In this document: in pieces, positions 6,601-31,026 of the stretch | Layout: each line of letters opens with the position of its first letter | Numbering within the stretch: the first letter of the stretch is position 1 | Assembly (NCBI GenBank): GCA_046719305.1 | Contig: JBDNDE010000001.1 | Coordinates: 8,607-40,606 of the forward strand | Source of the DNA: Gemmataceae bacterium | GTDB lineage: Bacteria > Planctomycetota > Planctomycetia > Gemmatales > Gemmataceae | Direction: 5' to 3' | DNA length: 32,000 nt | Made by a program: the position numbers and the translations under genes | The notes under the pieces: model-generated | What the model was told of the DNA's origin: nothing | Databases searched by the model: none | What the model saw: only the letters and a program-made list of their open reading frames with translations

Positions 6601-9509
6601 GTTGTCGGAAGGTTGTCCCTCTTCCAGACCAACTCACCCGTTGCTGCGTCATACAGCCGCAGGTTGTGCTCCGGCTCACCGTCCTCGTCCCAGTTCCCCG
6701 TGGCAATCCATCGGCCATCGGGCGACCAGGCGGCCACCCGTGCCGGACGCAACGTGCGAACCAGTTTGCCGGTTGCCAGTTCCCAGACGTAGGCCGGCCC
6801 AGCGCCTGCCGTCAGGAGATAGCGGGAGTCAGGCGAAAACGATAGATGGCGTGGCAGATGACTGGCCACCTGCAACCAGCGGGCCTCGAAGCGCGGTTTG
6901 ATGCTCCAAAAGGTTGAATGGAGGAAGCCTTGCAGCGGCGACACCGCCACATGTTGGCTATCGGCCGTAAAGCTGTAGCTGAGCTGTTGCAAGGCCAGCG
7001 GTAAGCGAAAGGCAGTCTTGCCAGTGGTGGACTCCACGAAGGTCAGTCCGTCGCGGTTGCGCAACACCCAGTATTGCCCGTCGGGCGTGATTTGGACAAA
7101 GCGACTTCCGGGATGGTTTTCGGATAGGTCGGGTCCAGCCGGTTTGCCGGTGCGCGGCGCGACGATTTCCTGCTTTTCGGGTCGGAGCAGGAAAAGTTCA
7201 TCCCGCTCAGGATGCAATGCGAAGGAATCCGAGCGGCTCTCTCGCTCTAGGGGCCAGGTACGCGGCTGGCCCGTGCCTGTCTCCCAGATGCGGAGTTGCC
7301 CACCCTTAGTGTGGTCCACCGGGCCACCCAACCAGACCAACAACTGACTTTCCCGATCGAAATCAAGTGCATAGCTTCGCGGTGCTTTTGTTTCAAAAAC
7401 ATGCAGCTTCTTGCCCTCACTTGACCAGATCCTCACTCCCGAAGGGCCAGCTGCCGCATAGCTTTTGCCATCGCGTGCATAGGCGACCAGTTGCACGGGA
7501 TTGCTAGCGTCCTCAGGTGCAGGCAACGGCTTGCCCGAAGGAAATTCCCACCGCAACAGCCCTTTAGGACCACCAGCCAACAGAATCTTCCCATCGGGGC
7601 TGAACCGTGGCCGAAGATCGACTGCTACTTCCCCTTGCAGAAGGATCGGCTTTTCTACCTGGCTGAGGTCTACGAGGGCGAACTGATCCGGGCCTACGAA
7701 GCCGGCCATGTGCCTCCCATCGGGATGAAACACAACCTGGCCCCCCACACCGTCCACCTGCGTATGGCCATAGTGCATGACGCGGCGGAGGAAATGCCAT
7801 TCCCACTGGCGTAAATCAGGCGGCACCTGATCGAGCAGATCACAGGCCGATTTGTGGTTGGTCCGCTTCCAGGCTTCAAACGCTCGCGTAATCAGGTTGG
7901 CAGCTAAGGCACGCCGAGTGTCGCGTTCGGAGCGTTCCGCCTGTTGACGGGCCTGCGTGGCTTTGGCCTGGGCCGCTTTCGCTTTCGCCTCCTCGGCTTT
8001 GGCGCGTGCCTCTTCTTGCTCGGCTTTGGCCTGGGCCTTTTTGGCTGCCTGGGCGGAACGCTCCGCGACGCTCTTCTGGATTCTCGCCTCGTTGGCTTCG
8101 CGCTGGGCTCGTTCGCGTTGTTCGGCTTCCTTCTTCTGCGCGTCGGTTGCTTTGTCGCGCTCTTTACTGGCAATCTGCCGTTGTTCTTCGGCTGTTTGGC
8201 GTTCTTTGTCCGCCCGATCGCGCTGCAGAGTGGCCCAAAGAGACTGCATGCGCGCGTTATCGGCTTCGCTTTCGGCTCGCAGCCACAATCCCGTCACCAG
8301 GATGGAACCTACCAGTGTCAGCGTCACCGCCAGGCTACTCAACGCGGCCACTACTGGGTTGCGTTTGGCCCATTTGGCCGCACGGCCGACTGCGCTCAGT
8401 GGCCGAGCCACGATAGGTTCACCAGCCTGATAACGCCGCAGATCGTCGGCCAGTTCCTCGGCCGAGCCATAGCGGCGCGTGGGGTCTTTCTCCAGGCATT
8501 TGAGTGTAATGGTATTGAGGTCAACCGGGATGGTAGGAACAAGTTGTTTGGGCAGCACCGGATCGACATTCAACACTTGATGCAACGTCTCGCGGGTGCT
8601 GGCTCCCTGGAACGGTGCGCGGCCAGTCAAGCACTTGTACAGAATCGCCCCCAGGGCATAAACATCGGCCAACGGCCCAATGTCGTGGATACGACCGGCG
8701 GCCTGCTCGGGAGCCATGTACGATGGGGTGCCCATGATCTGGCCGGTGACTGTTTGGCCGTGATCGTCGTCGAGTTGTTTAGCCAGGCCGAAGTCCGTGA
8801 TTTTAACCAGGTGATACCATTCATTCGGACCGGCAACCGATTTGCTGGGTAGACTTTGTCCGGGGAGGCGAACATCGCGGCTACTCTGGCGACGAGCCGT
8901 CGCTTTGCGGTCGGCGCGATCTAGCCCTTGCAACAACACATTGGCCGGTTTGAGATCGCGATGGATGATCTGCCGCGTGTGCGCGTAATGCATCGCACGC
9001 GCCAACACCTCTACCAGGGCGGCCGCCTCAGCCGGAGTCTGTGGTTCGCTTCCCAGATACTGCGACAGATTGATGCCCTCGATCAATTCCAGCGAGAAAT
9101 AGGGCATCCCCTCGTGGTCGCCAATCTCATAAAGCGTCACGATGTTGGGATGCTGCAATCGCGCCGCTGACTGTGCCTCAGAACGAAACCGGGCCAGTTC
9201 TATCTCGCCGGCCAAGTTAGCCGAGCGGATCATCTTGAGCGCAACGGTACGGTTCAAGGCCGGTTGCCGGGCTTTGTACACGACGCCCATGCCACCACGG
9301 CCTAATTCGCCTAGCACCTCATACGGACCAATCTTCTGTCCAATGGGGCCAGGGAGCTTGCCGCCGGTAGAGTTGGGCAAGGCCAACGAATCCTCGGCAG
9401 CTTGACCTTCATAGGCATCGGTGTGACCGGCTTCGGCAGTCGTGGTTTGCTGGCGAACGTCTGGTTCAGAAGTGACAGCAGGGGGAACGGTCGGACGTTC
9501 GGGAGTCAT
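3618..9509 (-). CDS. giant membrane-spanning Ser/Thr protein kinase: N-terminal Hanks kinase domain, one TM helix, Lys/Ala/Glu-rich coiled coil, WD40-type beta-propeller repeats, C-terminal TPR region (1963 aa)
   Basis: The ORF is complete, with GGAGGA 5 nt upstream of the ATG. Kinase motifs are GELGRGGMGVVYKA, VALK, HRDLKPANVLL, DFGLAK and SYMAPE (about aa 62-366, nt ~8412-9326). The TM helix is VVAALSSLAVTLTLVGSILVTGLWL (nt ~8283-8354). The coiled coil is KAQAKAEQEEARAKAEEAKAKAAQAKATQARQQ (nt ~7875-8267). There are at least 10 repeats of the F/W-SPDG-x-hydrophobic type, e.g. FSPDGKILLAG, WSPDGRWIATG, FSPDSKQLLVG and FSPDGHYLVVSS (nt ~5400-7830). TPR-like helical repeats run to the C-terminus (nt ~3690-5370). 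Confidence 0.95.
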   Translation of the reverse strand: MTPERPTVPPAVTSEPDVRQQTTTAEAGHTDAYEGQAAEDSLALPNSTGGKLPGPIGQKIGPYEVLGELGRGGMGVVYKARQPALNRTVALKMIRSANLAGEIELARFRSEAQSAARLQHPNIVTLYEIGDHEGMPYFSLELIEGINLSQYLGSEPQTPAEAAALVEVLARAMHYAHTRQIIHRDLKPANVLLQGLDRADRKATARRQSSRDVRLPGQSLPSKSVAGPNEWYHLVKITDFGLAKQLDDDHGQTVTGQIMGTPSYMAPEQAAGRIHDIGPLADVYALGAILYKCLTGRAPFQGASTRETLHQVLNVDPVLPKQLVPTIPVDLNTITLKCLEKDPTRRYGSAEELADDLRRYQAGEPIVARPLSAVGRAAKWAKRNPVVAALSSLAVTLTLVGSILVTGLWLRAESEADNARMQSLWATLQRDRADKERQTAEEQRQIASKERDKATDAQKKEAEQRERAQREANEARIQKSVAERSAQAAKKAQAKAEQEEARAKAEEAKAKAAQAKATQARQQAERSERDTRRALAANLITRAFEAWKRTNHKSACDLLDQVPPDLRQWEWHFLRRVMHYGHTQVDGVGGQVVFHPDGRHMAGFVGPDQFALVDLSQVEKPILLQGEVAVDLRPRFSPDGKILLAGGPKGLLRWEFPSGKPLPAPEDASNPVQLVAYARDGKSYAAAGPSGVRIWSSEGKKLHVFETKAPRSYALDFDRESQLLVWLGGPVDHTKGGQLRIWETGTGQPRTWPLERESRSDSFALHPERDELFLLRPEKQEIVAPRTGKPAGPDLSENHPGSRFVQITPDGQYWVLRNRDGLTFVESTTGKTAFRLPLALQQLSYSFTADSQHVAVSPLQGFLHSTFWSIKPRFEARWLQVASHLPRHLSFSPDSRYLLTAGAGPAYVWELATGKLVRTLRPARVAAWSPDGRWIATGNWDEDGEPEHNLRLYDAATGELVWKRDNLPTTAVAFSPDSKQLLVGSRIDLARKRGKVSLLEVEAGKLLWSVDTQLIREISLSPQGDAIWTLESSSPQVRRYDPKSGKILPQLRLHDGLTQGWAVAPREGLWLSFGADNLQQMSEQIAVRDRNNRFLFLLSGLRGTIYSADWHPSLSRIVSSDESGSIQLWDLFTKQELLALQTGFDPYPKQKRDLRPVVARFSPDGHYLVVSSSQGVQVYDDRPVPELAQMSSVNGHRNSWGVRDPDQKWSLSRHPGPRIECRSATGNLLWETTTPLLATMTCAYHLDRKRLAVSAGYELGEIEVPSGKSIRQYDARPHLAGPIYAVAYSSDGKRLGCLSGGRLTVLKTQPSVTIWDVETGNLLSHQPIDKPFEETERPWFSQDLLQIVCTNVDSVTREVKGFRLWDTATGKPLPPVMTARVQSELNWQRRGVRLTSLSEGFRGNILQDQLQQLVRLPDKEEQQARATRLMLSDSWNGSEAKIAYTNQQWFKAQFHLERAGVTGSDNPDVIYSLAAVVHNLSKRMVEEYRHEVARPSLERCLAIYERLVKRYPNDPDYVRDYANTLMTYADLLDELGFHTEGIKHAKQALDLFKKAHALQSTPSKDGDVVMAYNTLASIYKGNIDDDLAKKIFSQGVEYGEQALKRHQGDFAIQYPLAALYHNRASICAGSQEDDLATSGFQKSIDLLKPMVQLQPDPYIIHDLSNSYMELAARHVLKDEPVQATKAIAESLALIRRALKANPDQAFLKRHYSELLGTVAGLYARMGKLADADVAYEEALEIVRELVRQDPKLAMSRFDLAATLHNQAKFLLLYLDRPLTAELQYRKAEKLLDELVDSAPRIRMYRRDLANTHVHLAETLMRQGKRLAALSAFQKALKSWEAYAKDYPRWRENHFQILTCKAMVALLRNRRDEVLRLASEMTKRDNPRERSGYEAAVVLMHLAGRTEDKAEREKILAQAVTYIELSVKDRDESPSILRRDPQLKLLHDRDDFKKLLDKVTPKEK

Positions 9510-9585: not shown

Positions 9586-10224
9586 TCAACTCACCTTTTC
9601 TTCGTCGGTGTCGTCGACTTTCTTTTTGGCTTTGAGATCTTTTGGGTTTGCAACAGGCGGGACGCTACGCGACTCGCTGCGTAATTTCTTGCGGGCTCGC
9701 GACAGGATCGGTCCGATCGAGTTTACCGGAATGTTTAACTCCATACTGATTTCTTCATACGATCGCCCTTCGATGTAGTGCAGTCGCACCACTTCCCGTT
9801 CGCGGCCCGGCAGCTTCGACAGTAGCCGTTCCACCTCTTCGAGCCGTTCTAGCCCCGTGGAAATCGGTTCGTCTTCGACCGGCTCGGGCGTCTCGGCCTG
9901 TGCTTGCACTTCCTTGGCGGCGGCTCGGCGGGCCAGTTCGTGGATGCAGATGCGCCGGGCAATCACCGTGAGATAGACTGATAGGCTGGCCTCACCGCGG
10001 AACTGCCGCAGTACCGCGTAATCGTTGGCTATGACCTGCGTGAGAATCTCAGCGGCCAGGTCTTCGATGTCTTCGGGCCGCAGAACCACGGAGCGAAGAT
10101 GGGCAGTGTGCTGGATGACGTGGTAGATTAGGCCCAGGAAGCGATCGACGAAGTCGTTCCAGGCCCCAGGTTTCTTGGCCAGGCAGCGAGTCAGCAAATC
10201 ACGATCCAGCGGAGTCAGGGCCAC
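9586..10224 (-). CDS. ECF-type sigma-70 family RNA polymerase sigma factor
   Basis: The ORF is 212 aa with a GTG start and GAGG about 8 nt upstream. Region 2 reads FVDRFLGLIYHVI...EDIEDLAAEILTQVIANDYAVLRQFRGEASLSVYLTVIARRICIHELAR. Region 4 contains an HTH: LPGREREVVRLHYIEGRSYEEISMELNIPVNSIGPILSRARKKLR. A ~30-aa charged C-terminal tail follows. The gene ends 76 nt upstream of the kinase gene on the same strand. Confidence 0.9.
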   Translation of the reverse strand: MALTPLDRDLLTRCLAKKPGAWNDFVDRFLGLIYHVIQHTAHLRSVVLRPEDIEDLAAEILTQVIANDYAVLRQFRGEASLSVYLTVIARRICIHELARRAAAKEVQAQAETPEPVEDEPISTGLERLEEVERLLSKLPGREREVVRLHYIEGRSYEEISMELNIPVNSIGPILSRARKKLRSESRSVPPVANPKDLKAKKKVDDTDEEKVS

Positions 10225-13995: not shown

Positions 13996-15111
13996 TTAGT
14001 CGCGTGAGCGTTGCCAGGCGAGCATTTCGCCGCGTGGCACCACCGAGCGGATCATCAGCAGTTCGCCAACCATCTCCGGTGACACCAAGCCGACAATCCG
14101 GCCAAAACGATCTACAACGGCCAGTCCCGGACAGGCACATTCTTGCATGAGTTGCATGGCGCGTTCCAGAGGAGCATCGGCAGTGATTGTCGGGACGTTG
14201 TGATGCATCACCTCGGTAACGGGGGTATCCGCCCCGCGATTTCGGTAGCCGGCTATCACATCATCGCGTGTCAGAATCCCGACGAGGGTTCCGCGGCTGT
14301 CGATGACAGGAAACTCGTGTTGTCCGGTCTGCAAAAGCGATTGAATGGCCTCGTGTAAATCGGCCTGCTGCTGCACCACCGTTAAATGAGTACGCATAGC
14401 GTCGCGCACCAGTAATCCTCGGGCCAACTCTTTCATCTGAGCCGAGGAGGATTCCTGCGAGGCGGCTAGATACACAAACAGAGCGATGAACAACAGCATC
14501 GGGTTTCCGCCCAGCAGCCCCAGCAAGCCGAATAAAAATGCCATCGCTTGACCGATGCCGGCGGCGGTCTGGGTTGCCGTGGCATAATTCATGAACATAG
14601 CCAGAACAGCACGTAGAACTCGGCCACCATCCATGGGAAAAGCGGGCAGAAGGTTGAACAACACCAGCCAGACATTGACCGCGGCGAGCTTGGGCAACAG
14701 CCCGACCTCGTGCGAAGTGATTTGTTTGATCTCCGAAAGATCGCCCCAGCGATCGAGTACTAAAAACAAAACTGCCGCAATCACCACATTAACCGCCGGA
14801 CCGGCCAGAGCCACCACGATCTCTTGCATCGGTTGGTCGGGCATCCGCTGCAATCGGGCCACCCCGCCGATCGGCAACAGGGTAATATCTGGCGTCGGTA
14901 TCCCGTACAGCCGAGCCGCCAGAGCGTGGCCGAACTCGTGCAACAAGACGCACAAAAACAGGGCCAGGATAAAGACAATTCCCGAAACGGCCGCAGCGGG
15001 GCCGCCTTGGAGATAATGAGCCACTCCGATCCAGGCTACCAAAATGAAAAAGGTGACGTGGATTCTCACCTCAATACCAGCGATCCGTGCAATCGGGAAG
15101 GACCAGCCCAT
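13996..15111 (-). CDS. site-2 protease family (peptidase M50) with C-terminal tandem CBS domains
   Basis: The zinc motif is HEFGHALAARLYG, and the second M50 motif is NLLPAFPMDGGRVL. Several TM helices are present. The C-terminal CBS pair includes VRDAMRTHLTVV, EFPVIDSRGTLVGILTRDDV, VTEVMHHNVPTI and LAVVDRFGRIVGLVSPEMV. The track ORF starts at GTG 15147. I prefer ATG 15111 (MGWSFPIARIAGIEVRIH, typical family N-terminus), which has AGGGGG 4 nt upstream. Confidence 0.9.
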   Translation of the reverse strand: MGWSFPIARIAGIEVRIHVTFFILVAWIGVAHYLQGGPAAAVSGIVFILALFLCVLLHEFGHALAARLYGIPTPDITLLPIGGVARLQRMPDQPMQEIVVALAGPAVNVVIAAVLFLVLDRWGDLSEIKQITSHEVGLLPKLAAVNVWLVLFNLLPAFPMDGGRVLRAVLAMFMNYATATQTAAGIGQAMAFLFGLLGLLGGNPMLLFIALFVYLAASQESSSAQMKELARGLLVRDAMRTHLTVVQQQADLHEAIQSLLQTGQHEFPVIDSRGTLVGILTRDDVIAGYRNRGADTPVTEVMHHNVPTITADAPLERAMQLMQECACPGLAVVDRFGRIVGLVSPEMVGELLMIRSVVPRGEMLAWQRSRD

Positions 15112-15371
15112 GCAACCCCCTGGTGTGTCGAAGCAGACTTTTGGCACACAGCAGCCAGTTTATAAACAGGGCTTGCTAAGGGAAAGCCGACGATCTTGAA
15201 GCACTCACTCGAGCACTCGATGGCCCGCTTCCTAGTAACATGAAACACTCCACCTTGGCCAGGAGATCCTTCGTAGCCGCCAAGAACGGTTGCTCTAGTC
15301 CGGAGGTGGTCGCACGGCTACGATGGAAGGGGTTGTTCGGCCTGTGCCGTCTGCACGGAGGAGTCCTGGCA

Positions 15372-20700: not shown

Positions 20701-21831
20701 ATGCAGGTGATAAATTGGCTCCGGCTTAGCCTGGCAGTGGCTATGGTTTGTCTGGCCGTGCTGACCGCCCCCCCGTCAATCCAGGCCCAGGCTGCCAAGA
20801 AGGGCAAGTCGATCACTGTCCGTACCTTCGATGGTGTAGACCTCTCTGGCACCCACTACCCCAATACCAGCGGCAAACGAGACGCTGTCGCGATCTTGAT
20901 GCACCATTTTGACAAGTCCAAAGGCGGCAGCAGTTCTGCCGAAGGCTGGAGCCAACTTGTCAACGACCTGCTAGCCGATGGCTACACGGTGATTAATTTC
21001 GACTTCCGGGGTTTCGGCGACAGTAAGAACGTCGACAAGGAAAAATTTTGGAAGTATTCGCATAACACAGCAAACATCACCGGGAAACGCGGTGAAACCA
21101 TCGACTACAAAAACTTCCGCCCCAACTACTATCCTTACCTTGTTAATGACCTTGCCGCCATCAAGGCCTATCTGGACCGCCGCAATGATGCGCGGGAACT
21201 AAACAGCGGCAACATTCTCCTCATCGGGGCGGGTGATGCTGCCGCGGTCGGCAATCTGTGGTTGGCTCATGAATCCAAACGCCGCCGCGATAAATCGGGG
21301 GGGGCCATCGGAGCCATGATGGCACTAGGAGAACCCGAGGTAAAGGATGTTGCCGCGGCCATCTGGCTCTCACCGACGAGCAAGATCGGAGCCAAGACCG
21401 TTCCCCTACAGACCCTTCAGAAGTGGGCCGCTGAGGCGGGCAAGGTCAATAAAGTGCCAATGGCTATCGTCTACGGAAGCAAAGATGCCACCAGTTTAGA
21501 CGTTGCCAGCAAACTCTACAACGCGATCAAGGGGGGGGCCAAACCGAAGGAGTTTCCTCACACGGTCCTAGAAAAGATTCCTGATACCAATCAAAAATAT
21601 GCCGATCTGCTCACGCGGGACAATGGAGGGTCCGCCTGGATCGTGAAAAAATACCTCCCCAAAGTGATGGAAGATCGTGGCGCAGTGGAACGCATTGAAC
21701 GTGATATCATCAAGTCGCCCTACTATTATCAACTGACCAAAAACGGCATCCCACAGATTCAGAAAGCACCGGGGTTGGATGTCGCTGAGGTCAACCTCAA
21801 ACTATTCTGGCCGGGTCTCCTCGGTCCCTGA
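20701..21831 (+). CDS. secreted alpha/beta-hydrolase-fold protein with non-canonical nucleophile elbow
   Basis: GAGGT lies 7 nt upstream of the ATG. The signal peptide is LSLAVAMVCLAVLTAPPSIQA/QA. The alpha/beta-hydrolase hallmark YTVINFDFRGFGDS is present. The nucleophile-elbow position reads ILLIGAGDAAAVG instead of G-x-S-x-G. Confidence 0.7.
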   Translation: MQVINWLRLSLAVAMVCLAVLTAPPSIQAQAAKKGKSITVRTFDGVDLSGTHYPNTSGKRDAVAILMHHFDKSKGGSSSAEGWSQLVNDLLADGYTVINFDFRGFGDSKNVDKEKFWKYSHNTANITGKRGETIDYKNFRPNYYPYLVNDLAAIKAYLDRRNDARELNSGNILLIGAGDAAAVGNLWLAHESKRRRDKSGGAIGAMMALGEPEVKDVAAAIWLSPTSKIGAKTVPLQTLQKWAAEAGKVNKVPMAIVYGSKDATSLDVASKLYNAIKGGAKPKEFPHTVLEKIPDTNQKYADLLTRDNGGSAWIVKKYLPKVMEDRGAVERIERDIIKSPYYYQLTKNGIPQIQKAPGLDVAEVNLKLFWPGLLGP

Positions 21832-22767
21832 TTCTTCAGGCGCGGTCGCTCGTCGACTCCCACGTGGGTGAAACTGGCGATGAATGGCCCGCAAGCGTTC
21901 GCGGTCGACATGGGTGTAGCGTTGGGTCGTCCGAATACTCGCGTGCCCGAGCATTTCCTGTACTGTCCGCAGGTCCGCTCCTCCAGAGAGCAGATGCGTC
22001 GCGAAACTATGCCGCAACGCATGGGGGCTAATCTTGCTGGGAAGATTGGCTCGTTTGGCATACTTCTTCACCAGCGACCAGATCACTACCCGTGACAACG
22101 ACTTGCCCGCTCGGCTGACAAACAGCCACGGCGACTCGGGCGCTGTCTTGGTCAGGCTCGGTCGCTGTTTCTCCAAGTAGGCCTGCAAGCTGGCTACGGC
22201 CATCTTGCCCAGCGGTACCACCCGTTGCTTGTTCCCCTTGCCGATGCAGCGGCAAAAGCCGGCGTTGAGTTGCAAGTCATCCAGGCGCAGCCCCGCTACC
22301 TCGGATACCCGACAGCCGGTCGCATACAAGGTTTCCAACACGGCGCGATCTCGCAGATAGAAGCGATCCGCATTTGTGGGCGCTTCCAGCAGTCTGTTCA
22401 CCCCTGCTGGATCGAGCACCTGCGGCACTCGCTCCCAAAGCATCGGCGAGGCTAACAATTCGACAGCTGTTTGAGTGGTACGTTCTTCGAGTTTGAGGAA
22501 GCGGTAAAATACCTTGAGTGCGACTAAATGTCGGGCGACGCTGGGTGGGGCCAGATGCATCTCCTCGCGCAAAAAGGCCACATACTGGGCCAACTCCCGC
22601 AGGGACGGCAATAGGTAGTTCGCTACGTTGCCCTGTTCCACCCAGCCGGCATAGCGTTCCAAATCCCGGCTATAAGCGGCTTGGGTGTTGACGGCCAGAC
22701 CGCGTTCGCAACGCAGGTACTGCCGGAACGCTCTGACATCGTCGCGCAGTTCACTGATACCACTCAT
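21802..22767 (-). CDS. xerD: site-specific tyrosine recombinase, XerD-like
   Basis: The N-terminal SAM-like domain reads FRQYLRCERGLAVNTQAAYSRDLERYAGWV and ARHLVALKVFYRFL. The catalytic domain has ATGCRVSEVAGLRLDDL, HALRHSFATHLL, LGHASIRTTQRYTHV and RLRAIHRQFHPRG. A ~17-aa acidic tail overlaps the convergent hydrolase gene by 30 nt. Confidence 0.8.
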   Translation of the reverse strand: MSGISELRDDVRAFRQYLRCERGLAVNTQAAYSRDLERYAGWVEQGNVANYLLPSLRELAQYVAFLREEMHLAPPSVARHLVALKVFYRFLKLEERTTQTAVELLASPMLWERVPQVLDPAGVNRLLEAPTNADRFYLRDRAVLETLYATGCRVSEVAGLRLDDLQLNAGFCRCIGKGNKQRVVPLGKMAVASLQAYLEKQRPSLTKTAPESPWLFVSRAGKSLSRVVIWSLVKKYAKRANLPSKISPHALRHSFATHLLSGGADLRTVQEMLGHASIRTTQRYTHVDRERLRAIHRQFHPRGSRRATAPEESGTEETRPE

Positions 22768-22800: not shown

Positions 22801-23466
22801 TTATTCCCTAATCTCGACGTTCTGCACGCCTTCAAGTCGCGACACCGCATCGACCAGCCCTAGGATGGCCGACGGGGAAGCTAACTGAATCTCGTAAGTG
22901 GCATCCAGGGCAGCCCCGCCCCGGGCCGTAGTGATCGCTGCGAGTCGCGCTGCTTTGGCATGCTTGCTCAAAAGCGAGGCAATCTGCTCGGGCGAGAAGC
23001 TGTTGCTGGCCACCCGCACCAGCAGTTGGAGCGAGCGTTGCCGTTCGACCGGCGGCGTGCGAAAACACCACCCCACTAGCAACACCAGCGGCGCGACCAT
23101 CAGCGGCGCTAGTACATAGCCCACCCCAGCCGACATACCGAAGCCAACGGCCAGGATCACGAAGGCGCTCTCGCGAGTGTCTTCGACCACGGTGCGAAAT
23201 CGCACTAGTGACAGTGTGCCCACTAGACTAAAAGCTCGTGCCACGCTGTTGCCGATCACGATCGTGACCAAGGCAATCAAAAGACTCAGCAGCACCATTG
23301 TCGCCAGAAACGGCCAATTCACGCCGCGTTCGCGGCTGTAGGTTGAGAGATGATATAGCAGTGCGGCCAACAATCCCAGAGCGAAGGCAGCGACGAGGCG
23401 CACTGCCAATTCGGGCCAGGAAGTGTCGATATCGGCATGAATACCGTGTGTTAGCCAATCGGGCAT
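22801..23466 (-). CDS. DUF4956-family integral membrane protein
   Basis: The track ORF (325 aa) is over-extended. The ATG at 23466 (MPDWLTHGIH..) overlaps the stop of the upstream VTC gene by 16 nt. About 4 TM helices are present. The family signature as I recall it is IGNSVARAFSLVGTLSLVRFRTVVEDTRESAFVILAVGFGMSAGVG. A C-terminal soluble ~80 aa follows. Confidence 0.8.
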   Translation of the reverse strand: MPDWLTHGIHADIDTSWPELAVRLVAAFALGLLAALLYHLSTYSRERGVNWPFLATMVLLSLLIALVTIVIGNSVARAFSLVGTLSLVRFRTVVEDTRESAFVILAVGFGMSAGVGYVLAPLMVAPLVLLVGWCFRTPPVERQRSLQLLVRVASNSFSPEQIASLLSKHAKAARLAAITTARGGAALDATYEIQLASPSAILGLVDAVSRLEGVQNVEIRE

Positions 23467-24254
23467 TCGCTGATCCCCTCGGCTCGCAGGCACAAGCGGT
23501 ACTTGGAAACACCGCTGGGTAGTTGGCCTGGTAGCGTTGCCAGCAAATCGCGAAATAATCCAGGTAAGAGTCCGGCAAACTTCAGTTCCAGCACAGCGTG
23601 ACCCTGAAGCAAGGGCCGACCAGCGGTCAACGGTGTGAGGTCCCAATCCGTGGCCCGTTCGCCGCGTAAATGACGATCGATGGTCAAGCGGATGCCCGGA
23701 CCGTGAAACGCTGTGCGTGAATAAGCGACTCGAGCCGTTGGCTGGAGTTGTCGTCGCCGCAGGGCGTGAAGAAACCAAGCGAAGGGAAGTTGCTCCGGGA
23801 TGGTATCGGGTTCCCTTTGCAAGAGAGCCAACTGATCCAGGGGCAGAAGCTCGCGACGTTTGCGTACCTGATCGCCCTGTCGGCGTTTGCGCTCGAGGTG
23901 AATCAGATTTCCTGATTCATAACGGCGCAAGCGATATTTGATGCGTCGATGGCCAGGACGGCGATAAAACACGTCCAACGCAGCGGTGTCACAATAAAGC
24001 GAAGTGGTGTGGTAGGTACCGTCTACACCGTGCGGATCAGGCAACAGGTGCTGGCGTGCCCAGGCTTCGACTTGCTGGGCCTCCGGACCTAGCACATATT
24101 TGAGTTCATAGGCCGGTCCCTCTCCACGCTGTTGTAAGGAGGGAGAAAGCGAGATAGGGGGAAGATCATCCACGGCGGGATCTCCAGTAGGAGACAAGCG
24201 AGGCGAGGACTCCAGGCAGGACCAGGTTGGCACCTTCGCCAATCGTTCACACAT
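23451..24254 (-). CDS. VTC-domain protein (polyphosphate-polymerase-like triphosphate-tunnel fold, PF09359-like)
   Basis: Motifs are YELKYVL (the ExK strand of tunnel enzymes), HTTSLYCDTAALDVFY, RRIKYRLRRYESGNLIHLERKRRQGDQVRKRR, RTAFHGPGIRLTIDRHL and AVLELKF. The N-terminal ~50 aa are of uncertain validity. Confidence 0.8.
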   Translation of the reverse strand: MCERLAKVPTWSCLESSPRLSPTGDPAVDDLPPISLSPSLQQRGEGPAYELKYVLGPEAQQVEAWARQHLLPDPHGVDGTYHTTSLYCDTAALDVFYRRPGHRRIKYRLRRYESGNLIHLERKRRQGDQVRKRRELLPLDQLALLQREPDTIPEQLPFAWFLHALRRRQLQPTARVAYSRTAFHGPGIRLTIDRHLRGERATDWDLTPLTAGRPLLQGHAVLELKFAGLLPGLFRDLLATLPGQLPSGVSKYRLCLRAEGISECPIG

Positions 24255-24459: not shown

Positions 24460-24483
24460 GCTTTGCGACTAGCTTTGCGACTA
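24460..24483. repeat. perfect 12-bp tandem duplication spanning the sppA stop codon
   Basis: gctttgcgacta occurs at 24460-24471 and again at 24472-24483. On the minus strand this reads ..TTC AAA TAG TCG CAA AGC TAG TCG CAA AGC.., so the stop codon plus 9 nt are duplicated. Confidence 0.8.
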
Positions 24484-26286
24484 TTTGAAGCTCAGCTGAT
24501 ACGGAGCGATGGCCCAGATGTGTTCTTTTTCTTTGTTCAGGAACATCCCGATGCCTCGCACCTTCTCGGTCAGCCTAGGGTTCTCACCCAGCAGCCTTAT
24601 CACTTCCAGGCCAAAACCGCTCAGCAGCGAATCCAACGATGCCTTGGGCTTGGGCAACAGCAGCAACTCTGGCTCCTTGTCTGCCGCTAGGCCGCCGAGC
24701 TTAGCCGCCTCAGCAATAGCCTCTTCGAGCGTGCCCAACTGGTCGATCAGGCCGTTGGCCAACGCTTGCCGTCCGGTCCAGATGCGGCCGCCAGCTAATG
24801 CCTTGAGTTGATCACGGGTCATTTTCTTTCCGGCCAGGTGGCGTCCTTCCAAGGCCTTGTCCAAAAACAGGTCGTAGGTGTCCTCCATCATCGCCTTGAA
24901 AGCAGCCTTTTGAGCGTCGGTGAAGGGTTCATCGCTGAAGATGCCACTGTTGGCCCCGCGTGTAATGACCTCGCTGTCCAGACCTACCTTCTCGTACAAC
25001 CCCTTCAGGGCCAACTTACCACCCACCACGCCAATGCTACCGGTGATGGTGCCCGGTTCGGCGTAGATTTTCTTAGCGGCCATGGCGATATAGTAACCGC
25101 CTGAAGCCGCTACATCGGACATGCTGGCCAGAACAGGCTTTTTGCAGCGTTTGAGTTCCTTCCAGATCAGGTCACTGGCCAGGGCCGAACCGCCGGGACT
25201 ATCGACGCGTAGGACGATGGCTTTGACGGTTTTGTCTTCCTCCGCCTCGCGGATCGCCTTGACCATCGTTTCGGCTCCCATGCTCGCTCCCAAGAGCGGG
25301 TTGTTGCCCCCTTTGCCCGTATTGATCGCCCCTACGGCGTAAATCACGGCTACCTTGTCGGCCTTGGAGGTACTGGTTTTTGTGGGGCCGAAGACCAGCT
25401 TGCGATACAGACCGAAGATATCGAGGTCATCGTCTTTAGGCTTGCCGTAATCGCGTTCGAGTTTGACTTCCGCGACGTTCAATCGCTTCTTCAAGGACTC
25501 GGGAATTTCATCCAAGTAGCCAATCCGGTCAAACAGGTTAGCCTTGAGGGCGGCTTTGGGGCTGTAGGGGCCGGCGTCGATCAGTTTGCGAACCACCGCC
25601 GGTTCGAGTTTTCGTGTCTTGGCAATTACCCCGACGATCTCATTGTCGTAGAAATCGTCGATCATCTCGTTGAGCTGTTTCCGATTGGCATCACTCAGCT
25701 TATCCCGCAGGTAGGGTTCGGCCGCACTTTTGAAATCGCCCATCATGACAAAGTCGGCCTTGATGCCCACCATTTCGAGCAAACGTTTGTAGAAGGTAAC
25801 CTCGGTCCGCAAGCCGGTAAGCATGAGCATGCTTGCTTCGGGAATCACCACTTCGTCGCATGAGAGGGCCAGCAAGTAGTCCTTCATCGCTCCGCCTTCT
25901 ACGAAGCCGATCACCGGCTTGCCGCTGGCCCGCAACTTTTCGATAGCCGATCGTAATTCATGCAGTTTACCCCAGCCGGCGTTTAGGCCGTCGATCTCCA
26001 GCAGGACAGCAGCGACGTTTTTGTCTGCACCGGCTTTTTTGAGACGATCGATACGTGACTTGAAGTTTTCGCCCAGTGAGCCAAGCAACGAGTCAGCCAT
26101 AGGGGCGCTTTCATCCAGCGAGCCGGATAGTTTGATGTGGGCAATAACAGCCGGTTTGGCTTTTTCCTTGGGTTGATCGGCATCAGAGGCCGAGGCCTTG
26201 TCCGAGGTTTGGGCCGGAGCCGACCCCCATCCGGCCAGAGCAAAGAGCAGGGCGAGAAGCAATCGCGACATGGAAAATCCTCGCAA
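24481..26286 (-). CDS. sppA: signal peptide peptidase SppA, 67K type (two tandem S49 domains)
   Basis: The protein is 601 aa. The signal peptide is MSRLLLALLFALAGWGSAPAQT. The first S49-like domain contains VAAVLLEIDG and the second contains VKAIVLRVDSPGGSALASDLIW. The catalytic-serine motif MSDVAASGGYYIAMAA is present. GAGGA lies 7 nt upstream of the ATG. Confidence 0.9.
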   Translation of the reverse strand: MRGFSMSRLLLALLFALAGWGSAPAQTSDKASASDADQPKEKAKPAVIAHIKLSGSLDESAPMADSLLGSLGENFKSRIDRLKKAGADKNVAAVLLEIDGLNAGWGKLHELRSAIEKLRASGKPVIGFVEGGAMKDYLLALSCDEVVIPEASMLMLTGLRTEVTFYKRLLEMVGIKADFVMMGDFKSAAEPYLRDKLSDANRKQLNEMIDDFYDNEIVGVIAKTRKLEPAVVRKLIDAGPYSPKAALKANLFDRIGYLDEIPESLKKRLNVAEVKLERDYGKPKDDDLDIFGLYRKLVFGPTKTSTSKADKVAVIYAVGAINTGKGGNNPLLGASMGAETMVKAIREAEEDKTVKAIVLRVDSPGGSALASDLIWKELKRCKKPVLASMSDVAASGGYYIAMAAKKIYAEPGTITGSIGVVGGKLALKGLYEKVGLDSEVITRGANSGIFSDEPFTDAQKAAFKAMMEDTYDLFLDKALEGRHLAGKKMTRDQLKALAGGRIWTGRQALANGLIDQLGTLEEAIAEAAKLGGLAADKEPELLLLPKPKASLDSLLSGFGLEVIRLLGENPRLTEKVRGIGMFLNKEKEHIWAIAPYQLSFK

Positions 26287-27044: not shown

Positions 27045-27596
27045 TCACTCGAGAATCTTCGGCAGGGCGGCTAGGATCGCCTCGATGTCCTTTTCCTTCA
27101 GTTCGCCCTTTTTATAGGCAAACTGAGCGCGAGTCTTGCGGTTCTTGTAGAGAACCACGGTCACATCGGCATCAGGATGCAGTTCATAGCCCCCCGGACC
27201 CGACTTGCTATCCACCAGCGTCAGAATGGTCTTGGTAATCTTTTCCTTCTTGGCCAGGTTCTTGAGCTCATCTTCAAGCTTTTCGGAGTCGTTGCAGAAG
27301 ACCACGAAAGAACCCATCTTCTTCTTGGCATTCTCTTCGGTCTTCTTGTCGATGGCCTTGACCAAACTGGTCAAGTTGTCGGAGACTTCGCGAGCGAAGA
27401 TCATCACGACAGGGTTGCCACCGTTGCTTCAGACAAGGCAATTTTTGGAGCCGACGTTCTTGCCACTGCAGTGTAGTGGGTTGAACGCCTTAATCGGCAT
27501 AGTGGGCTTCTGTTCGCCCGATTTGAGTTCATCCGCTGCTAGCACGACGGTCACTATCGCGCAGGCCAGGGATGCTCCCAGCACCATCTTGTTCAT
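27045..27596 (-). CDS. secreted thioredoxin-like protein with one in-frame TGA (27431..27429) in a C-x-x-TGA motif; candidate selenoprotein (183 aa if TGA = Sec), otherwise a freshly inactivated gene
   Basis: The ATG at 27596 is preceded by AGGAGG at 6-nt spacing. Translation gives MNKMVLGASLACAIVTVVLAADELKSGEQKPTMPIKAFNPLHCSGKNVGSKNCLV-TGA-SNGGNPVVMIFAREVSDNLTSLVKAIDKK...KILE*. The track's 120-aa ORF (27045..27407) is the tail of this same frame. I checked the frame codon by codon from 27596 to 27402. Confidence 0.55.
27378..27410 (-). promoter_or_regulatory. stem-loop 18 nt downstream of the in-frame TGA (possible SECIS-like element)
   Basis: The minus-strand RNA is GUCG-UGAU-GAUCUUCG-CUCG-CGAAGUC-UC-CGAC. 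It has a 4-bp outer stem, a small internal loop, and an inner stem of 7 bp with one bulged U. The tetraloop starts about 34 nt after the UGA. That spacing is compatible with bacterial SECIS models as I recall them, but the structure is short and not diagnostic. Confidence 0.3.
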
Positions 27597-27885
27597 GAGA
27601 TCCTCCTATTGTGGAAGAAAGCCGGACCGTTCCGACTTCACCGTGTTGGACGAGAGCTACCGCTTTGCGATTCGAGCAAGCCGGCCAAGATGTGAAGGAT
27701 TTTCGGAAAAACGATTACGGCAACCAATTTCGCTAATCAAATCGAGGGAAGTGATAAGATTCTTCTATCGCGACTTTGCTTTACGATCCTCTATCAACAC
27801 CGGGCTTCGACTTGCCCCGACTGGCTTGGTTTGCTATCGCTGGCCCTCGCGCGATCGCCTCGTGCCGGTTGGGAGTTACCCTGTG

Positions 27886-30800
27886 ATGACCAGTCTCGGC
27901 TTGCTAGCGTTGCTGTTCTTCCTGAACGGCTCCACGACGGGTGAGCTACCAGCCTATCTACCGCGTTATGATCTCGTGATCGACCTAGATGTCAAGAATC
28001 GGCAGGCCCAGGTACAGCAGGTTGCAACGTGGACCAACCCGCACGAAACGCCCACAGATCGGGTTGTGCTGGTCGCTCACGCCAGGTATGTCGTGCCCGA
28101 GAAAGAGATCGGGTTTACTGCTAAGACGCTGGAGATCTTGCGAGTGCGACCTAGTGAGGCGATGGGAATCGTCGCGCCACCGTTGAAACTGCACGCGTTG
28201 AGAGTCGAAGGCCAATCGGCCCGATACACCGTTGAGGGGGACACCCAGACCACCTTGGTTGTCCCCCTAGGTCGTCCCCTTGGCAAGGGCCAGAGCATTC
28301 GGTTAACGCTGGATTTCACACTCGATTTGCCCGCCAAAATGGGCCGCTGGGGTCAATGGGACGGGATCACCACCTTAAGCAACTGGTTACCCATCTTTGC
28401 TTATTATGGCCCCGAGGTGAACCGCTTTGAGGTCCGCCCAGATGGAGCCAAATGGCAACCAACGAATTTCATCGCCTGGCATCAACCATTCTTTAATGAA
28501 GCGGGCATCTATTCGGTGCGGCTCACGGTCGATGGTGACCAGAAAGTCGTGGCCACGGGCAAGATTTTCGACCGCAAAACGAGCCCTGAAGGACGCCAAG
28601 TGTTGCACATTCACGCCTGTGGGGTGCGAGAATTCTCCCTCTTTTGTAGCAGCAAGTATTGCTTCCATGAGGCGGACGTGCCCGCTGGACCCGATGGGAG
28701 CATGGTCCGCGTCCGGACCGCGGTTTCGCCACGCAATGTCTTTTATGGCAAAAAATGTGTCGAATTCGCCTCGCATGCCTTGCTTTGCTACAGCCGCTGG
28801 CTGGGACCATACCCCTATCCCGAATTGACCGTAGCCGAATCCTACTTTGGCTGGAACGGTAACGAGTGTTCGACGATCGTGATGCTAGATGAGCGGGTGC
28901 TGGGCATGCCACAGGTAGCCCAAGAATATGTGGATTATTTGCTCACCCATGAGGTGGCTCACCAATACTGGTACAACCTCGTCGGCACCAATGGCTTTAG
29001 CGAAACCTGGATGGACGAGGCGATGGCCAATCACCTGTGCCAGCGGGTGATGACCGAGAAGTATGGCAAGAACAACGCCCTGATGACCTACCCCAAATGG
29101 CTGGATTGGCTGCCGAAGATTCACCGCGACGACTTTCGCTCTAGTGGCATGTACGGTACCTTTGGCCGGGGGGAGAATACGGCGATACTACAGGAACTCA
29201 ACGGCTTTGGGCATCTCATCACTCTGTTTAACATGTGTTATGACAAGGGCAGTCGGGTGATGGCGATGATCGAGAACCGAATGGGAGGCGAACGATTTTT
29301 TTATGATTTTCTGCGTCTGATCGTGAGCAAGTATCGCTACCGCATCCTCCGCGTGGCTGATTTCCGCCGGGAATTGGAAGCCTACACCGGCAGCACGCCC
29401 AAGAGGTGCGGCCAGTGCTGGGCAGACTTTTTCGAGAACTGGCTGTGCAAAGAGGGGTTGAGCGACTGGAGCGTCGAAAATGTCACGCTCACCAAGCCGC
29501 CTAAATGTGTTAATGAATCGTATGAGCGATGTTTTCTCAAACGTCGTTTGCTGTTGTGCCGGGGTGCCTGTCCCGAAAACGACTTACCGACTGACGGGGT
29601 TCGAGTGGAGGTGATTGTTCACCAACGCCAAGAGTATGACGAGCCAACGCAACTGGGCTTGGAACTGCCCAACTGCCAGGGCTACCCGATTCGCATTCCG
29701 ATTCTCCCGCACCTATCGATCTACACGATCTGTGAGCCGCCCGCTCGCGTCACTCGTCTGGAAAATGGCCCCAAAGGCGGTGTACGGATGAAAATCGAGG
29801 TCGTCCTGCCTGCGGAGCCAACACAAATTGCCATCGACCCCGACCAGAACCTGATCGACGCCAACCCCGCGAACAATTATTGGCACACGCCGATTCGTTG
29901 GCGTTTGACGCCCTTATACACTTTTTTAGAAGAAACAGATCTGACCAACGCCTATGATCGCTGGAACATCATTGCCGGGCCTTGGCTGTTTACGCCGCCT
30001 TATCAAGACCCCTGGTTCACTCGTTCGACGATGGCCGGCGCACGCCTGGGGGCCTACCGCACTCAGCAGTTCGTTGGTGGGGCCTACATCGGCTTCCGCA
30101 CCGATTTCCGCGATGTTGTCGCCGGCGTCGATGGCATGTGGGACCACTGGCCCCAGCCTACTATGCAATCCGGCGTTATTGCCGAACGCCGACTTGCAGA
30201 GGTGCAACGGGGTGATCCGAACGCCTTTCGGGCTGTCGCATGGACACGCTACATCTTTCTTTATTCACCCAGTTTGTATCTACCCCCGGCTCATTTCGTT
30301 GAAGGGTTTGTCAAATATTCCGATAACTTTCTCCCGTTTCCAGCCGAGAGGGTGCCGACCGGGGTTCGTTACGATCGCACGACCACAGCGGGGTTGCATT
30401 ACCGCATCAACTACCTAACCCCCTATTGGGATCCCGAGGGCGGTTTTCAGTTCGATGCCTGGTACGAAGGCGGGATTGCGGCTCAGCCTTCTACCGTGAT
30501 GGTGCAGAAGCTCTCCGGTCAGTTCAGCAGCGTTCATTTCCCCCCGGATCTGCGACCCTGGTTTGCCGAGGGAAGCCTAGCACAAAAGATCAGCGGCTGG
30601 CTGGCCGACACTCGCTTCGCTTTGCGCCTTTTTGGTGCCACCTCGATGCCCTCGCGTGGTGAATTTTTCACCTTGGGCGGGGCGGATCTGTTTCGCGGCT
30701 TTGACATGCGCGAGCGTCAGGGCAGCATGGTTTATGTCGGCTCGGTGGAGTGGCGTGTGCCTCTGGTTCAAGCTGTCAAATGGGACTGCTGCGACCACAT

Positions 30801-31026
30801 GATCGGCCTGCGTAGTGCCTATCTGGCCGCGTTTTATGATGTCGGCAATGCCTTCACCAGTGGCCGCTCGGTGGGGTCGATGGTACACGCGGTCGGTTTG
30901 GGGCTACGAGCCGATGTGGCGTGGTTCAGTTTTGTCGAGCGGACGACGCTGCGGCTAGATATTGCCCAGACCCTCAATAGCAGCAGGGGGGTGCAAGCCT
31001 GGATTGGGGTCAATCACCCGTTTTGA
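27886..31026 (+). CDS. fusion protein: N-terminal M1-family (gluzincin) metallopeptidase plus C-terminal Omp85/BamA-type outer-membrane beta-barrel (1046 aa)
   Basis: The 1273-aa track ORF is over-extended, because its first 680 nt run antisense through the thioredoxin-like gene. The in-frame ATG at 27886 (GGGAG 10 nt upstream) gives MTSLGLLALLFFLNGSTTG... The M1 active site reads HEVAHQYWYNLVGTNGFSETWMDEAMANH, with exact HExxH-x18-E spacing. The barrel has the Omp85 loop-6-like motif GGADLFRGFD, plus AAFYDVGNAF, GLGLRADV and LRLDIAQ. The protein ends in ..GVNHPF, i.e. a terminal Phe. Confidence 0.85.
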   Translation: MTSLGLLALLFFLNGSTTGELPAYLPRYDLVIDLDVKNRQAQVQQVATWTNPHETPTDRVVLVAHARYVVPEKEIGFTAKTLEILRVRPSEAMGIVAPPLKLHALRVEGQSARYTVEGDTQTTLVVPLGRPLGKGQSIRLTLDFTLDLPAKMGRWGQWDGITTLSNWLPIFAYYGPEVNRFEVRPDGAKWQPTNFIAWHQPFFNEAGIYSVRLTVDGDQKVVATGKIFDRKTSPEGRQVLHIHACGVREFSLFCSSKYCFHEADVPAGPDGSMVRVRTAVSPRNVFYGKKCVEFASHALLCYSRWLGPYPYPELTVAESYFGWNGNECSTIVMLDERVLGMPQVAQEYVDYLLTHEVAHQYWYNLVGTNGFSETWMDEAMANHLCQRVMTEKYGKNNALMTYPKWLDWLPKIHRDDFRSSGMYGTFGRGENTAILQELNGFGHLITLFNMCYDKGSRVMAMIENRMGGERFFYDFLRLIVSKYRYRILRVADFRRELEAYTGSTPKRCGQCWADFFENWLCKEGLSDWSVENVTLTKPPKCVNESYERCFLKRRLLLCRGACPENDLPTDGVRVEVIVHQRQEYDEPTQLGLELPNCQGYPIRIPILPHLSIYTICEPPARVTRLENGPKGGVRMKIEVVLPAEPTQIAIDPDQNLIDANPANNYWHTPIRWRLTPLYTFLEETDLTNAYDRWNIIAGPWLFTPPYQDPWFTRSTMAGARLGAYRTQQFVGGAYIGFRTDFRDVVAGVDGMWDHWPQPTMQSGVIAERRLAEVQRGDPNAFRAVAWTRYIFLYSPSLYLPPAHFVEGFVKYSDNFLPFPAERVPTGVRYDRTTTAGLHYRINYLTPYWDPEGGFQFDAWYEGGIAAQPSTVMVQKLSGQFSSVHFPPDLRPWFAEGSLAQKISGWLADTRFALRLFGATSMPSRGEFFTLGGADLFRGFDMRERQGSMVYVGSVEWRVPLVQAVKWDCCDHMIGLRSAYLAAFYDVGNAFTSGRSVGSMVHAVGLGLRADVAWFSFVERTTLRLDIAQTLNSSRGVQAWIGVNHPF

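Follow-up and report, generated by a model that had tools for sequence, protein, structure and literature searches.

The window analysed here is a 32,000-nucleotide stretch from a Gemmataceae bacterium (contig JBDNDE010000001.1, positions 8,607 to 40,606). On its plus strand it carries a gene whose product joins an M1 metallopeptidase module to a C-terminal outer membrane β-barrel of the Omp85 type. The gene is a single uninterrupted open reading frame (ORF; 27886–31026) of 1046 codons plus stop, with an ATG at 27886, a stop codon at 31024–31026 and the sequence GGGAG 10 nt upstream of the ATG. Its product is 100% identical to the NCBI protein "M1 family aminopeptidase [Gemmataceae bacterium]" (P0001). 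An earlier note on this DNA had described one continuous ORF running from the peptidase into the barrel, and the frame is indeed unbroken. The features of the gene are listed in Table 1.

The N-terminal part of the protein belongs to the M1 family. The Pfam model Peptidase_M1 (PF01433) matches residues 307–502 with an E-value of 1.1e-13 and 51.7 bits (cut-off 27.7), and it matches all 36 homologues that were scanned. When a 36-member family profile was compared with the PDB, the only solved matches were M1 aminopeptidases, the best being glutamyl aminopeptidase (4kx7, E 1.4e-12). A full-length AlphaFold2 model had a mean predicted local distance difference test (pLDDT) score of 80.9 and a predicted template modelling (pTM) score of 0.72. 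Foldseek aligned this model with ERAP1, ERAP2, IRAP, PSA and LTA4H over ~690 columns (E 2e-21 to 1e-18), at just 11–15% identity to the solved M1 enzymes. The model places a β domain, a helical catalytic domain and a β-sandwich one after the other. The helical domain IV of M1 enzymes is absent from it, and the chain runs from the β-sandwich through a 42-residue linker into the barrel.

Conservation was scored in 160 sequences, 60 from Gemmatales, 50 from Isosphaeraceae and 50 from Candidatus Omnitrophota. The earlier note had read a HEVAH-x18-E zinc site with exact spacing and a GWNGNE sequence in the position of GAMEN, and both readings stand. HEVAH lies at residues 355–359 with Glu378 at the expected distance, opposite HELVH and its Glu in the profile alignment to 4kx7. 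The same alignment sets N324-G325-N326-E327-C328 opposite G-A-M-E-N, with Glu as the only GAMEN residue retained. Tyr452 is found opposite the Tyr of SYSKGS in both glutamyl aminopeptidase and puromycin-sensitive aminopeptidase, and WHQP (residues 198–201) opposite WDEP of the latter enzyme. His355, Glu356, His359, Glu378 and Tyr452 are 100% conserved (160/160). Judged by this residue conservation, the M1 active site is intact and predicted to be catalytically competent.

Around the GAMEN position, Gly322 and Gly325 are kept in all three clades, and Glu327 is found in 97–100% of the Gemmatales and Isosphaeraceae sequences. The Omnitrophota have Gln instead, in the motif GYGGEQM (GGEQM, with the Glu displaced by one position). 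M1 enzymes anchor the free amino group of the substrate with the Glu of GAMEN and a Glu of the xEP motif in domain I. Since WHQP and NGNEC align with WDEP and GAMEN, Gln200 and Glu327 are plausible anchors for the amino group.

The M1 module is globular, ~650 residues long and has 17 Cys residues, several of them conserved. Its β-sandwich sits at the position of M1 domain III and is the least conserved region of the protein (0.32 overall). The earlier note had seen here (about 29400–29900) a Cys-containing linker. A Cys-rich insertion is present at residues 543–565, while most of the region is β-sandwich and not linker. The insertion is variable and poorly conserved, with pLDDT <50 at residues 543–545 and 552–565. 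Two other Cys residues, Cys328 of the GAMEN-equivalent motif (28867–28869) and Cys358 at the fourth position of HExCH, are found together in 57/60 Gemmatales and 35/50 Isosphaeraceae sequences and are both missing in 50/50 Omnitrophota. This pattern suggests that the two Cys may be disulfide-bonded or in contact at the active site. In the window protein, as in few others, position 358 (28957–28959) is Ala, which leaves its Cys328 unpaired.

The protein is probably Sec-exported. Residues 2–13 form a hydrophobic helix in the model, and the N-termini of the homologues look like n-h-c signal peptides with AxA-type sites 3–6 residues ahead of PAWLPRYD, the conserved sequence with which domain I begins. 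The choice of start codon is ambiguous, as the ATG at 27886 gives a signal peptide without a positively charged n-region. An alternative in-frame TTG at 27826 would add LVCYRWPSRDRLVPVGSYPV, an n-region with three Arg residues. The annotated N-termini of the closest homologues are equally short and uncharged.

By predicted fold and signature motifs, the C-terminal region is an Omp85-type barrel. Sixteen long strands are present in two AlphaFold2 models, one of the full-length protein and one of residues 655–1046 (pLDDT 78.6, pTM 0.78). Foldseek analysis of the barrel model against the PDB gave Omp85-superfamily proteins for all of the best 50 matches (E 1.4e-7 to 2.4e-4, template modelling (TM) scores ~0.5). 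These include TamA of Pseudomonas aeruginosa and Escherichia coli, BamA of several phyla, Toc75 and Sam50, and the best fold match is 8us3 (E 1.4e-7, TM 0.52). The fold search was needed because the barrel is too divergent to be detected from sequence only. In hidden Markov model (HMM) scans the peptidase was recognised, whereas the Pfam Omp85 model (PF01103) missed the window protein itself and matched 25/36 close homologues at E ≤ 0.01. It scores above the gathering cut-off in distant full-length homologues that also have Peptidase_M1 (48.9–63.9 bits versus 24). The NCBIfam model Omp85_fam gave a sub-threshold match to residues 922–1046 (E 1.1e-6, 28.4 bits versus a cut-off of 200), and a barrel profile run against PDB sequences gave no match to a solved Omp85 protein with the threshold relaxed to E ≤ 10.

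The barrel motifs pointed out by the earlier note lie where it had put them: GGADLFRGFD with FRGF at residues 936–939, GLGLRAD at 1004–1010 and NHPF at the C-terminus. Published Omp85 signatures are (V/I)RG(F/Y) in loop 6 (L6) and (F/G)xDxG in strand 13, as given in PMC4490367. In the M1-Omp85 family Arg937 of the L6 motif is 99% conserved across clades, and the first motif position is F or L, not V or I. The strand-13 motif is FYDVG, in which Phe983, Asp985 and Gly987 are 99–100% conserved in the 160 sequences, and the terminal Phe is 98% conserved. Among the turns, YLTPYWDPEGG, which connects strands 8 and 9, is the best conserved (0.95 in Gemmatales), and all clades have P-Y-W-D-P in common. 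Besides loop 4 (L4) and L6 the extracellular loops are short, with 4–13 residues. Taken together, the HMM, motif, structure-prediction and comparative evidence bears out an apparently active M1 gluzincin fused to an Omp85 barrel, as the earlier note had proposed.

No POTRA domain was recognised, in line with what the earlier note had reported. Pfam HMM scans gave no POTRA model match at E ≤ 10, either for the whole protein or for residues 501–700, and sub-fragments of the window protein gave chance-level matches only, with no POTRA, ShlB or Omp85 among them. Between the catalytic domain and strand 1, the secondary structure of the model likewise shows no β-α-α-β-β pattern. The linker at residues 651–692 has a length and secondary structure unfit for a POTRA domain. 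Its invariant residues include Leu681, Glu683, Asp685, Thr687 and Asp691, and several are acidic. The stretch TPLYTFLEETDLTNAYDR has pLDDT <50 in both models (residues 681–684 in the full-length one) despite its near-invariance, and the linker may therefore contact something that is missing from a monomer model, with the barrel lumen, a partner subunit or a metal as candidates. Absence of POTRA is compatible with membership of the Omp85 superfamily, because POTRA-less subfamilies are already accepted (PMC4104836).

Table 1. Features of the M1-Omp85 gene (positions in the window) and loci of its QATCH paralogues (positions given by locus).
Feature	Position	Strand	Basis or remark
Whole gene, 1046-aa M1 peptidase-Omp85 fusion protein plus stop	27886–31026	+	
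Probable Sec signal peptide, aa 1–19, MTSLGLLALLFFLNGSTTG	27886–27942	+	Hydrophobic helix aa 2–13 (AlphaFold2 model)
M1 domain I (N-terminal β), aa 27–280	27964–28725	+	All-β in AlphaFold2 model; WHQPFFNE aa 198–205
M1 catalytic thermolysin-like domain II, aa 282–520	28729–29445	+	PF01433; PDB profile matches
GWNGNEC, exopeptidase-motif variant, aa 322–328	28849–28869	+	HMM alignment to 4kx7
HEVAH, aa 355–359, and Glu378, 18 residues past His359	28948–29019	+	Direct sequence reading
Tyr452 in CYDKGS, equivalent of the M1 transition-state-stabilising Tyr	29239–29241	+	Alignment
β-sandwich at M1 domain III position, aa 528–650	29467–29835	+	All-β in AlphaFold2 model, one short low-confidence helix
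Conserved linker, aa 651–692, DPDQNLIDANPANNYW...TPLYTFLEETDLTNAYDR	29836–29961	+	Mean conservation 0.82 in Gemmatales
16-stranded Omp85-type β-barrel, aa 693–1046	29962–31023	+	AlphaFold2 models, Foldseek, PF01103 in homologues
Strand 8–9 turn YLTPYWDPEGG, aa 843–853	30412–30444	+	Predicted periplasmic from strand parity relative to loop 6
Loop 6, aa 922–947, between strands 11 and 12	30649–30726	+	AlphaFold2 model; FRGF at 30691–30702
FYDVG, inner-wall (F/G)xDxG motif, aa 983–987	30832–30846	+	Inside strand 13 (aa 973–991)
Last strand QAWIGVNHPF with C-terminal Phe, β-signal-like	30994–31023	+	Strand 16 is aa 1037–1043
QATCH loci	L045 6001–9195, L048 6001–9114, L053, L054 6001–9105, L057 6001–9075, L058 6001–9102		

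The fusion is widespread, and the survey found its architecture in Gemmatales, Isosphaeraceae and Candidatus Omnitrophota. A homologue search returned 813 matches; the top 120 had identities of 47–100% and mostly 98–100% coverage, with a few partial matches at 81–94%. More than 100 full-length homologues from independent assemblies share 47–77% identity with the window protein. Among GTDB species, each represented by one genome, 367 loci were found. The best 80 of these are nearly all from Gemmataceae, Gemmatales and Planctomycetota metagenome-assembled genomes (Zavarzinella, Limnoglobus and Fimbriiglobus included), with few other labels. Across the three clades ~330 full-length family sequences were collected. 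With only the barrel as query, no more than 240 clusters were matched among 1.84 billion cluster representatives. Ten distant barrel matches were scanned for domains: nine contain Peptidase_M1 (one weakly), and one has Omp85 only (P0172, 464 aa).

Members of the Isosphaeraceae clade are ~980 aa long, include proteins of the cultured Singulisphaera acidiphila, Paludisphaera borealis and Tundrisphaera, and are annotated as "M1 family aminopeptidase" or "Aminopeptidase N". Those of the Candidatus Omnitrophota clade are ~940 aa long, have both PF01433 and PF01103 in all members listed, and are named "BamA/TamA family outer membrane protein" or "M1 family aminopeptidase" at NCBI. One Omnitrophota protein (P0296, 1088 aa) has additional TPR-type domains (PF13431, PF13181) N-terminal to the M1-Omp85 core. 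The window protein aligns collinearly with an Omnitrophota member over residues 26–533 (27% identity, E 4e-62), over the junction at residues 646–699 and over residues 895–1046 (35%). This collinearity points to one ancestral fusion, or to transfer of the whole gene, within the Planctomycetes–Verrucomicrobia–Chlamydiae (PVC) group.

Two adjacent genes, one for a peptidase and one for an Omp85 protein, could in principle have been joined by a frameshift or a mis-assembly, and the earlier note had named the linker as the place to look. Such an artefact is ruled out by the continuous frame, the identical NCBI protein and the highly conserved junction region. Three lineages share this collinear arrangement across hundreds of separately made assemblies, among them complete genomes of cultured strains, and nothing in the comparative data spoke in favour of an artefact. 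We therefore consider this explanation vanishingly improbable.

Some Gemmataceae genomes have two copies of the gene, of which one has HExCH and the other QATCH, with the first zinc ligand and the catalytic Glu lost. The QATCH copy keeps His359, Glu378, Tyr452, GWNSNEC, the L6 and strand-13 motifs, a PYWNP turn and the terminal Phe. These paralogues are full-length, share 76–96% identity with each other and ~50% with the active copies, and make up six of the best 80 loci. For five of the six QATCH loci an intact copy is present in the same genome (L008, L013, L015, L017 and L016); the partner of L053 is not among the best 80 loci. The two copies lie apart in the genome in every case with an identified partner locus. 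From its sequence the QATCH copy looks like a conserved pseudo-peptidase partner, and its retention hints at a binding role or at hetero-oligomers.

The M1-Omp85 gene is flanked by genes on the opposite strand: a 120-aa ORF, a 141-aa ORF and SppA upstream, and a dihydroorotase-like amidohydrolase downstream. None of its neighbours in the window (SppA, VTC, DUF4956, integrase, dihydroorotase and the two small ORFs) recurs beside the best 80 homologous loci, and all-against-all clustering of the flanking ORFs of these 80 loci revealed no conserved partner gene. Promoter and terminator scans stayed at background level, and Rfam found no RNA family in the window. With no conserved neighbours and nothing from these scans, the gene looks stand-alone. 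The 478-bp divergent intergenic region (27408–27885) between it and the 120-aa minus-strand ORF likewise contains no Rfam family and no promoter above background.

Elsewhere in the window, a 601-aa SppA-type signal peptide peptidase with two S49 domains is encoded at 24481–26286 (minus strand) and an M50 site-2 protease with CBS domains at 13996–15147 (minus strand); neither protease is conserved beside the M1-Omp85 homologues. The VTC-domain ORF (23451–24254, minus strand) and the DUF4956 ORF (22801–23778, minus strand) overlap by ~330 nt as listed, and the start of DUF4956 is therefore probably further downstream. A XerC/D-type tyrosine recombinase (21802–22767) adjoins this pair. A 1963-aa protein (3618–9509, minus strand) combines an N-terminal Ser/Thr protein kinase with WD40 β-propeller arrays and a C-terminal TPR region. 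It is a large signalling protein of a kind typical of planctomycetes, and an extracytoplasmic function (ECF)-type sigma factor is encoded beside it (9586–10224). The window also encodes a DUF1552 protein and PhoD, and these, with SppA, the kinase protein and the sigma factor, make up a gene content that fits an origin in the Gemmataceae (Planctomycetota).

We consider it reasonably probable that the protein is a periplasm-facing M1 aminopeptidase that is anchored in the outer membrane by a POTRA-less Omp85 barrel. The barrel would hold the three-domain M1 module (residues ~20–650) at the periplasmic face of the membrane and would stand where classical M1 enzymes have their helical domain IV. 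It would then most likely be the task of the enzyme to trim N-terminal residues of peptides or of unfolded polypeptide ends near the outer membrane, in peptide scavenging or in the processing of envelope proteins. We infer the exopeptidase specificity and the physiological substrate, and likewise the periplasmic orientation, for which there are several lines of evidence. The solved Omp85 structures all have strands 11 and 12 joined by loop 6, and their strand 1 begins in the periplasm. As the strand count of the model is the same, strand 1 and the M1 module in front of it should be periplasmic, unless the linker threads the lumen. For type V passengers, globular Cys-rich zinc enzymes are unfavourable for passage through a narrow barrel, and the periplasm is without ATP. 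The module, as a globular zinc enzyme with many Cys residues, differs in this from translocated passengers, which favours a periplasmic location. The strongly conserved PYWDP turn and linker, which sit on the predicted periplasmic side, favour it as well. Finally, by analogy, PlpD, an Omp85-enzyme fusion that has been studied, keeps its patatin domain in the periplasm, as was shown experimentally (PMC11116518).

Several observations weigh against this reading. The exopeptidase specificity is uncertain, as the motif at the GAMEN position is non-canonical and differs between clades (GWNGNEC versus GYGGEQM); the earlier note had seen in the altered motif a sign that the enzyme may not be a classical aminopeptidase. 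Without domain IV the active site may gape wider than in classical M1 enzymes. The QATCH paralogues are maintained, and the module can therefore persist without catalysis. Mean conservation is 0.63 for extracellular loops and 0.67 for periplasmic turns in Gemmatales and is reversed in the other clades, so that this proxy for the docking side of the M1 module shows no overall difference between the two sides, with the linker and the PYWDP turn as the sole conspicuous stretches. Since no neighbour is conserved, there is also no operon-based clue, and the genomic context gives no hint of function.

The earlier note had suggested a type-Vd-like surface protease. In such a model the Omp85 barrel, or the barrel assembly machinery (BAM) during assembly, would export the M1 module in a type-V-like manner, and the resulting surface peptidase would digest environmental peptides. 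An enzyme fused to a C-terminal barrel is the type V layout, and a β-barrel-tethered aminopeptidase has a precedent in an autotransporter of P. aeruginosa (PMC3426542). As the extracellular loops besides L4 and L6 are short, the barrel may be without a large capping dome, and lumen threading is possible for a conserved 42-residue linker with low model confidence just before strand 1. The chain has no POTRA, however, and no patatin match in the Pfam scan, and a passenger that is neither β-helical nor repetitive would have to pass as a globular zinc enzyme of ~650 residues with 17 Cys. The L6 and strand-13 motifs that dock in the lumen are strictly conserved, and the strand order would place the module in the periplasm. 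PlpD, the sole Omp85-enzyme fusion tested, is periplasmic, and its authors have argued that translocation of folded domains is energetically implausible; passenger translocation, a type Vd feature, is disputed for the prototype itself (PMC11116518). The type Vd assignment, defined by a patatin passenger and a single POTRA, is thus not upheld, and we regard surface display as unlikely.

An equally doubtful alternative is that the barrel is a conduit or insertase that hands polypeptides to the M1 site and takes over the capping role of domain IV. Imported peptides, or exported and assembling proteins, might then be fed into a periplasmic aminopeptidase site, possibly with active and QATCH copies in hetero-oligomers; we give this little credence. 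The barrel replaces domain IV exactly after the β-sandwich at the domain III position, the whole-chain pTM of 0.72 weakly suggests a defined arrangement of the domains, and the strong purifying selection on L6, strand 13, the linker and the PYWDP turn seems to exceed what a passive anchor needs. It is also stated in PMC11116518 that the Omp85 proteins characterised before PlpD all act in protein assembly or translocation, yet PlpD shows that such a barrel can serve without a transport role. Against a coupled machine speak the lack of a POTRA to receive substrates and the absence of a conserved partner or substrate gene near the 80 loci. If it were real, it would be an Omp85 function distinct from BamA-like insertion, TpsB-like secretion and PlpD-like lipid processing. 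The QATCH copies, kept full-length with their other motifs and with high identity among genomes, could instead mean that the M1 module is mainly a non-catalytic binding or regulatory element, for instance a receptor or a chaperone-like replacement for POTRA, with catalysis secondary. This is very improbable for the window protein, as it and all 160 sampled sequences keep every catalytic residue and the QATCH copy is accompanied by an intact copy in five of six cases. A periplasm-facing, barrel-anchored aminopeptidase is therefore the reading that we prefer.

Public databases already contain M1-Omp85 proteins with automatically assigned names, the named Gemmatales and Isosphaeraceae matches being called "M1 family aminopeptidase", "Aminopeptidase N" or "hypothetical protein", and an Omp85 barrel with a non-POTRA enzyme module is already known as a kind. 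In the literature searched we found no description of an M1-Omp85 fusion, and one bioRxiv match was unrelated. The family is thus apparently a large conserved Omp85 subfamily undescribed in that literature. The usual definition of an Omp85 protein combines a barrel with POTRA domains and a role in protein insertion or secretion. PlpD has recently shown that this scaffold can also serve to keep an enzyme beneath the outer membrane. The M1-Omp85 proteins, found in hundreds of species, would be the second such case, independent of PlpD and much larger, with a different enzyme class and no POTRA. It bears on peptide processing in the large planctomycete periplasm, in a group of which few outer membrane proteins have been characterised, and it illustrates that the standard Pfam Omp85 model misses such divergent barrels. 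Its presence in cultured Singulisphaera acidiphila makes topology and activity directly testable.

With classical M1 enzymes (PepN, APN, ERAP1/2, glutamyl aminopeptidase, LTA4H) the protein has in common the β fold of domain I, a thermolysin-like domain II with HExxH-x18-E, a catalytic Tyr embedded in Y-x-K-G and, opposite GAMEN, a Glu. It differs from them by NGNEC in place of GAMEN and by the membrane barrel that replaces their helical, active-site-capping C-terminal domain. With BamA and TamA, which are its best structural matches, it shares the 16-stranded barrel, the L6 motif (V/I/F)RG(F/Y), FxDxG in strand 13 and the C-terminal aromatic residue. Unlike them it has no POTRA, its extracellular loops are much shorter, and its barrel profile gave no sequence match with a solved BamA or TamA. 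For Gemmata obscuriglobus and Singulisphaera acidiphila, separate BamA homologues have been reported (PMC3422733). The fusion protein is therefore probably an extra Omp85 paralogue and not the BamA of its organism.

The aminopeptidase autotransporter of P. aeruginosa is reportedly a classical type Va protein with a small barrel and a surface-exposed passenger from a different peptidase family. As in the M1-Omp85 proteins, its aminopeptidase is tethered to the outer membrane by a C-terminal β-barrel, within a three-domain autotransporter structure as described in PMC3426542. The Omp85/TpsB census of Heinz & Lithgow (2014; PMC4104836) lists ten subfamilies, including patatin-like, "Metallo" (PF00149), WD40-like (PF07676, PF00930) and noNterm. 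The "Metallo", "WD40-like" and "noNterm" subfamilies resemble the window protein in that the N-terminal region is not POTRA, and in "Metallo" an enzyme-like domain directly precedes the barrel. The "Metallo" domain is PF00149, however, which has no match in the window protein, and in Gemmatales the barrel has diverged so far that the window protein escapes PF01103. PF01433 appears neither in the text of PMC4104836 nor in the supplements examined, and later papers repeat its list of subfamilies. Its authors, too, debated a periplasmic versus a translocated location of the N-terminal domains.

The closest comparison is with PlpD and FplA, patatin-like Omp85 proteins that used to be classed as type Vd autotransporters. 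In these proteins an N-terminal hydrolase is also fused to a C-terminal 16-stranded Omp85 barrel, in an accessory Omp85 paralogue that is not BamA, and the periplasmic location of the PlpD enzyme domain is the orientation proposed here. PlpD, which dimerises, combines a patatin phospholipase with one POTRA, whereas the window protein has M1 domains I–III and none. PlpD and FplA come from Proteobacteria and Fusobacteria, and the M1-Omp85 proteins from Planctomycetota and Omnitrophota.

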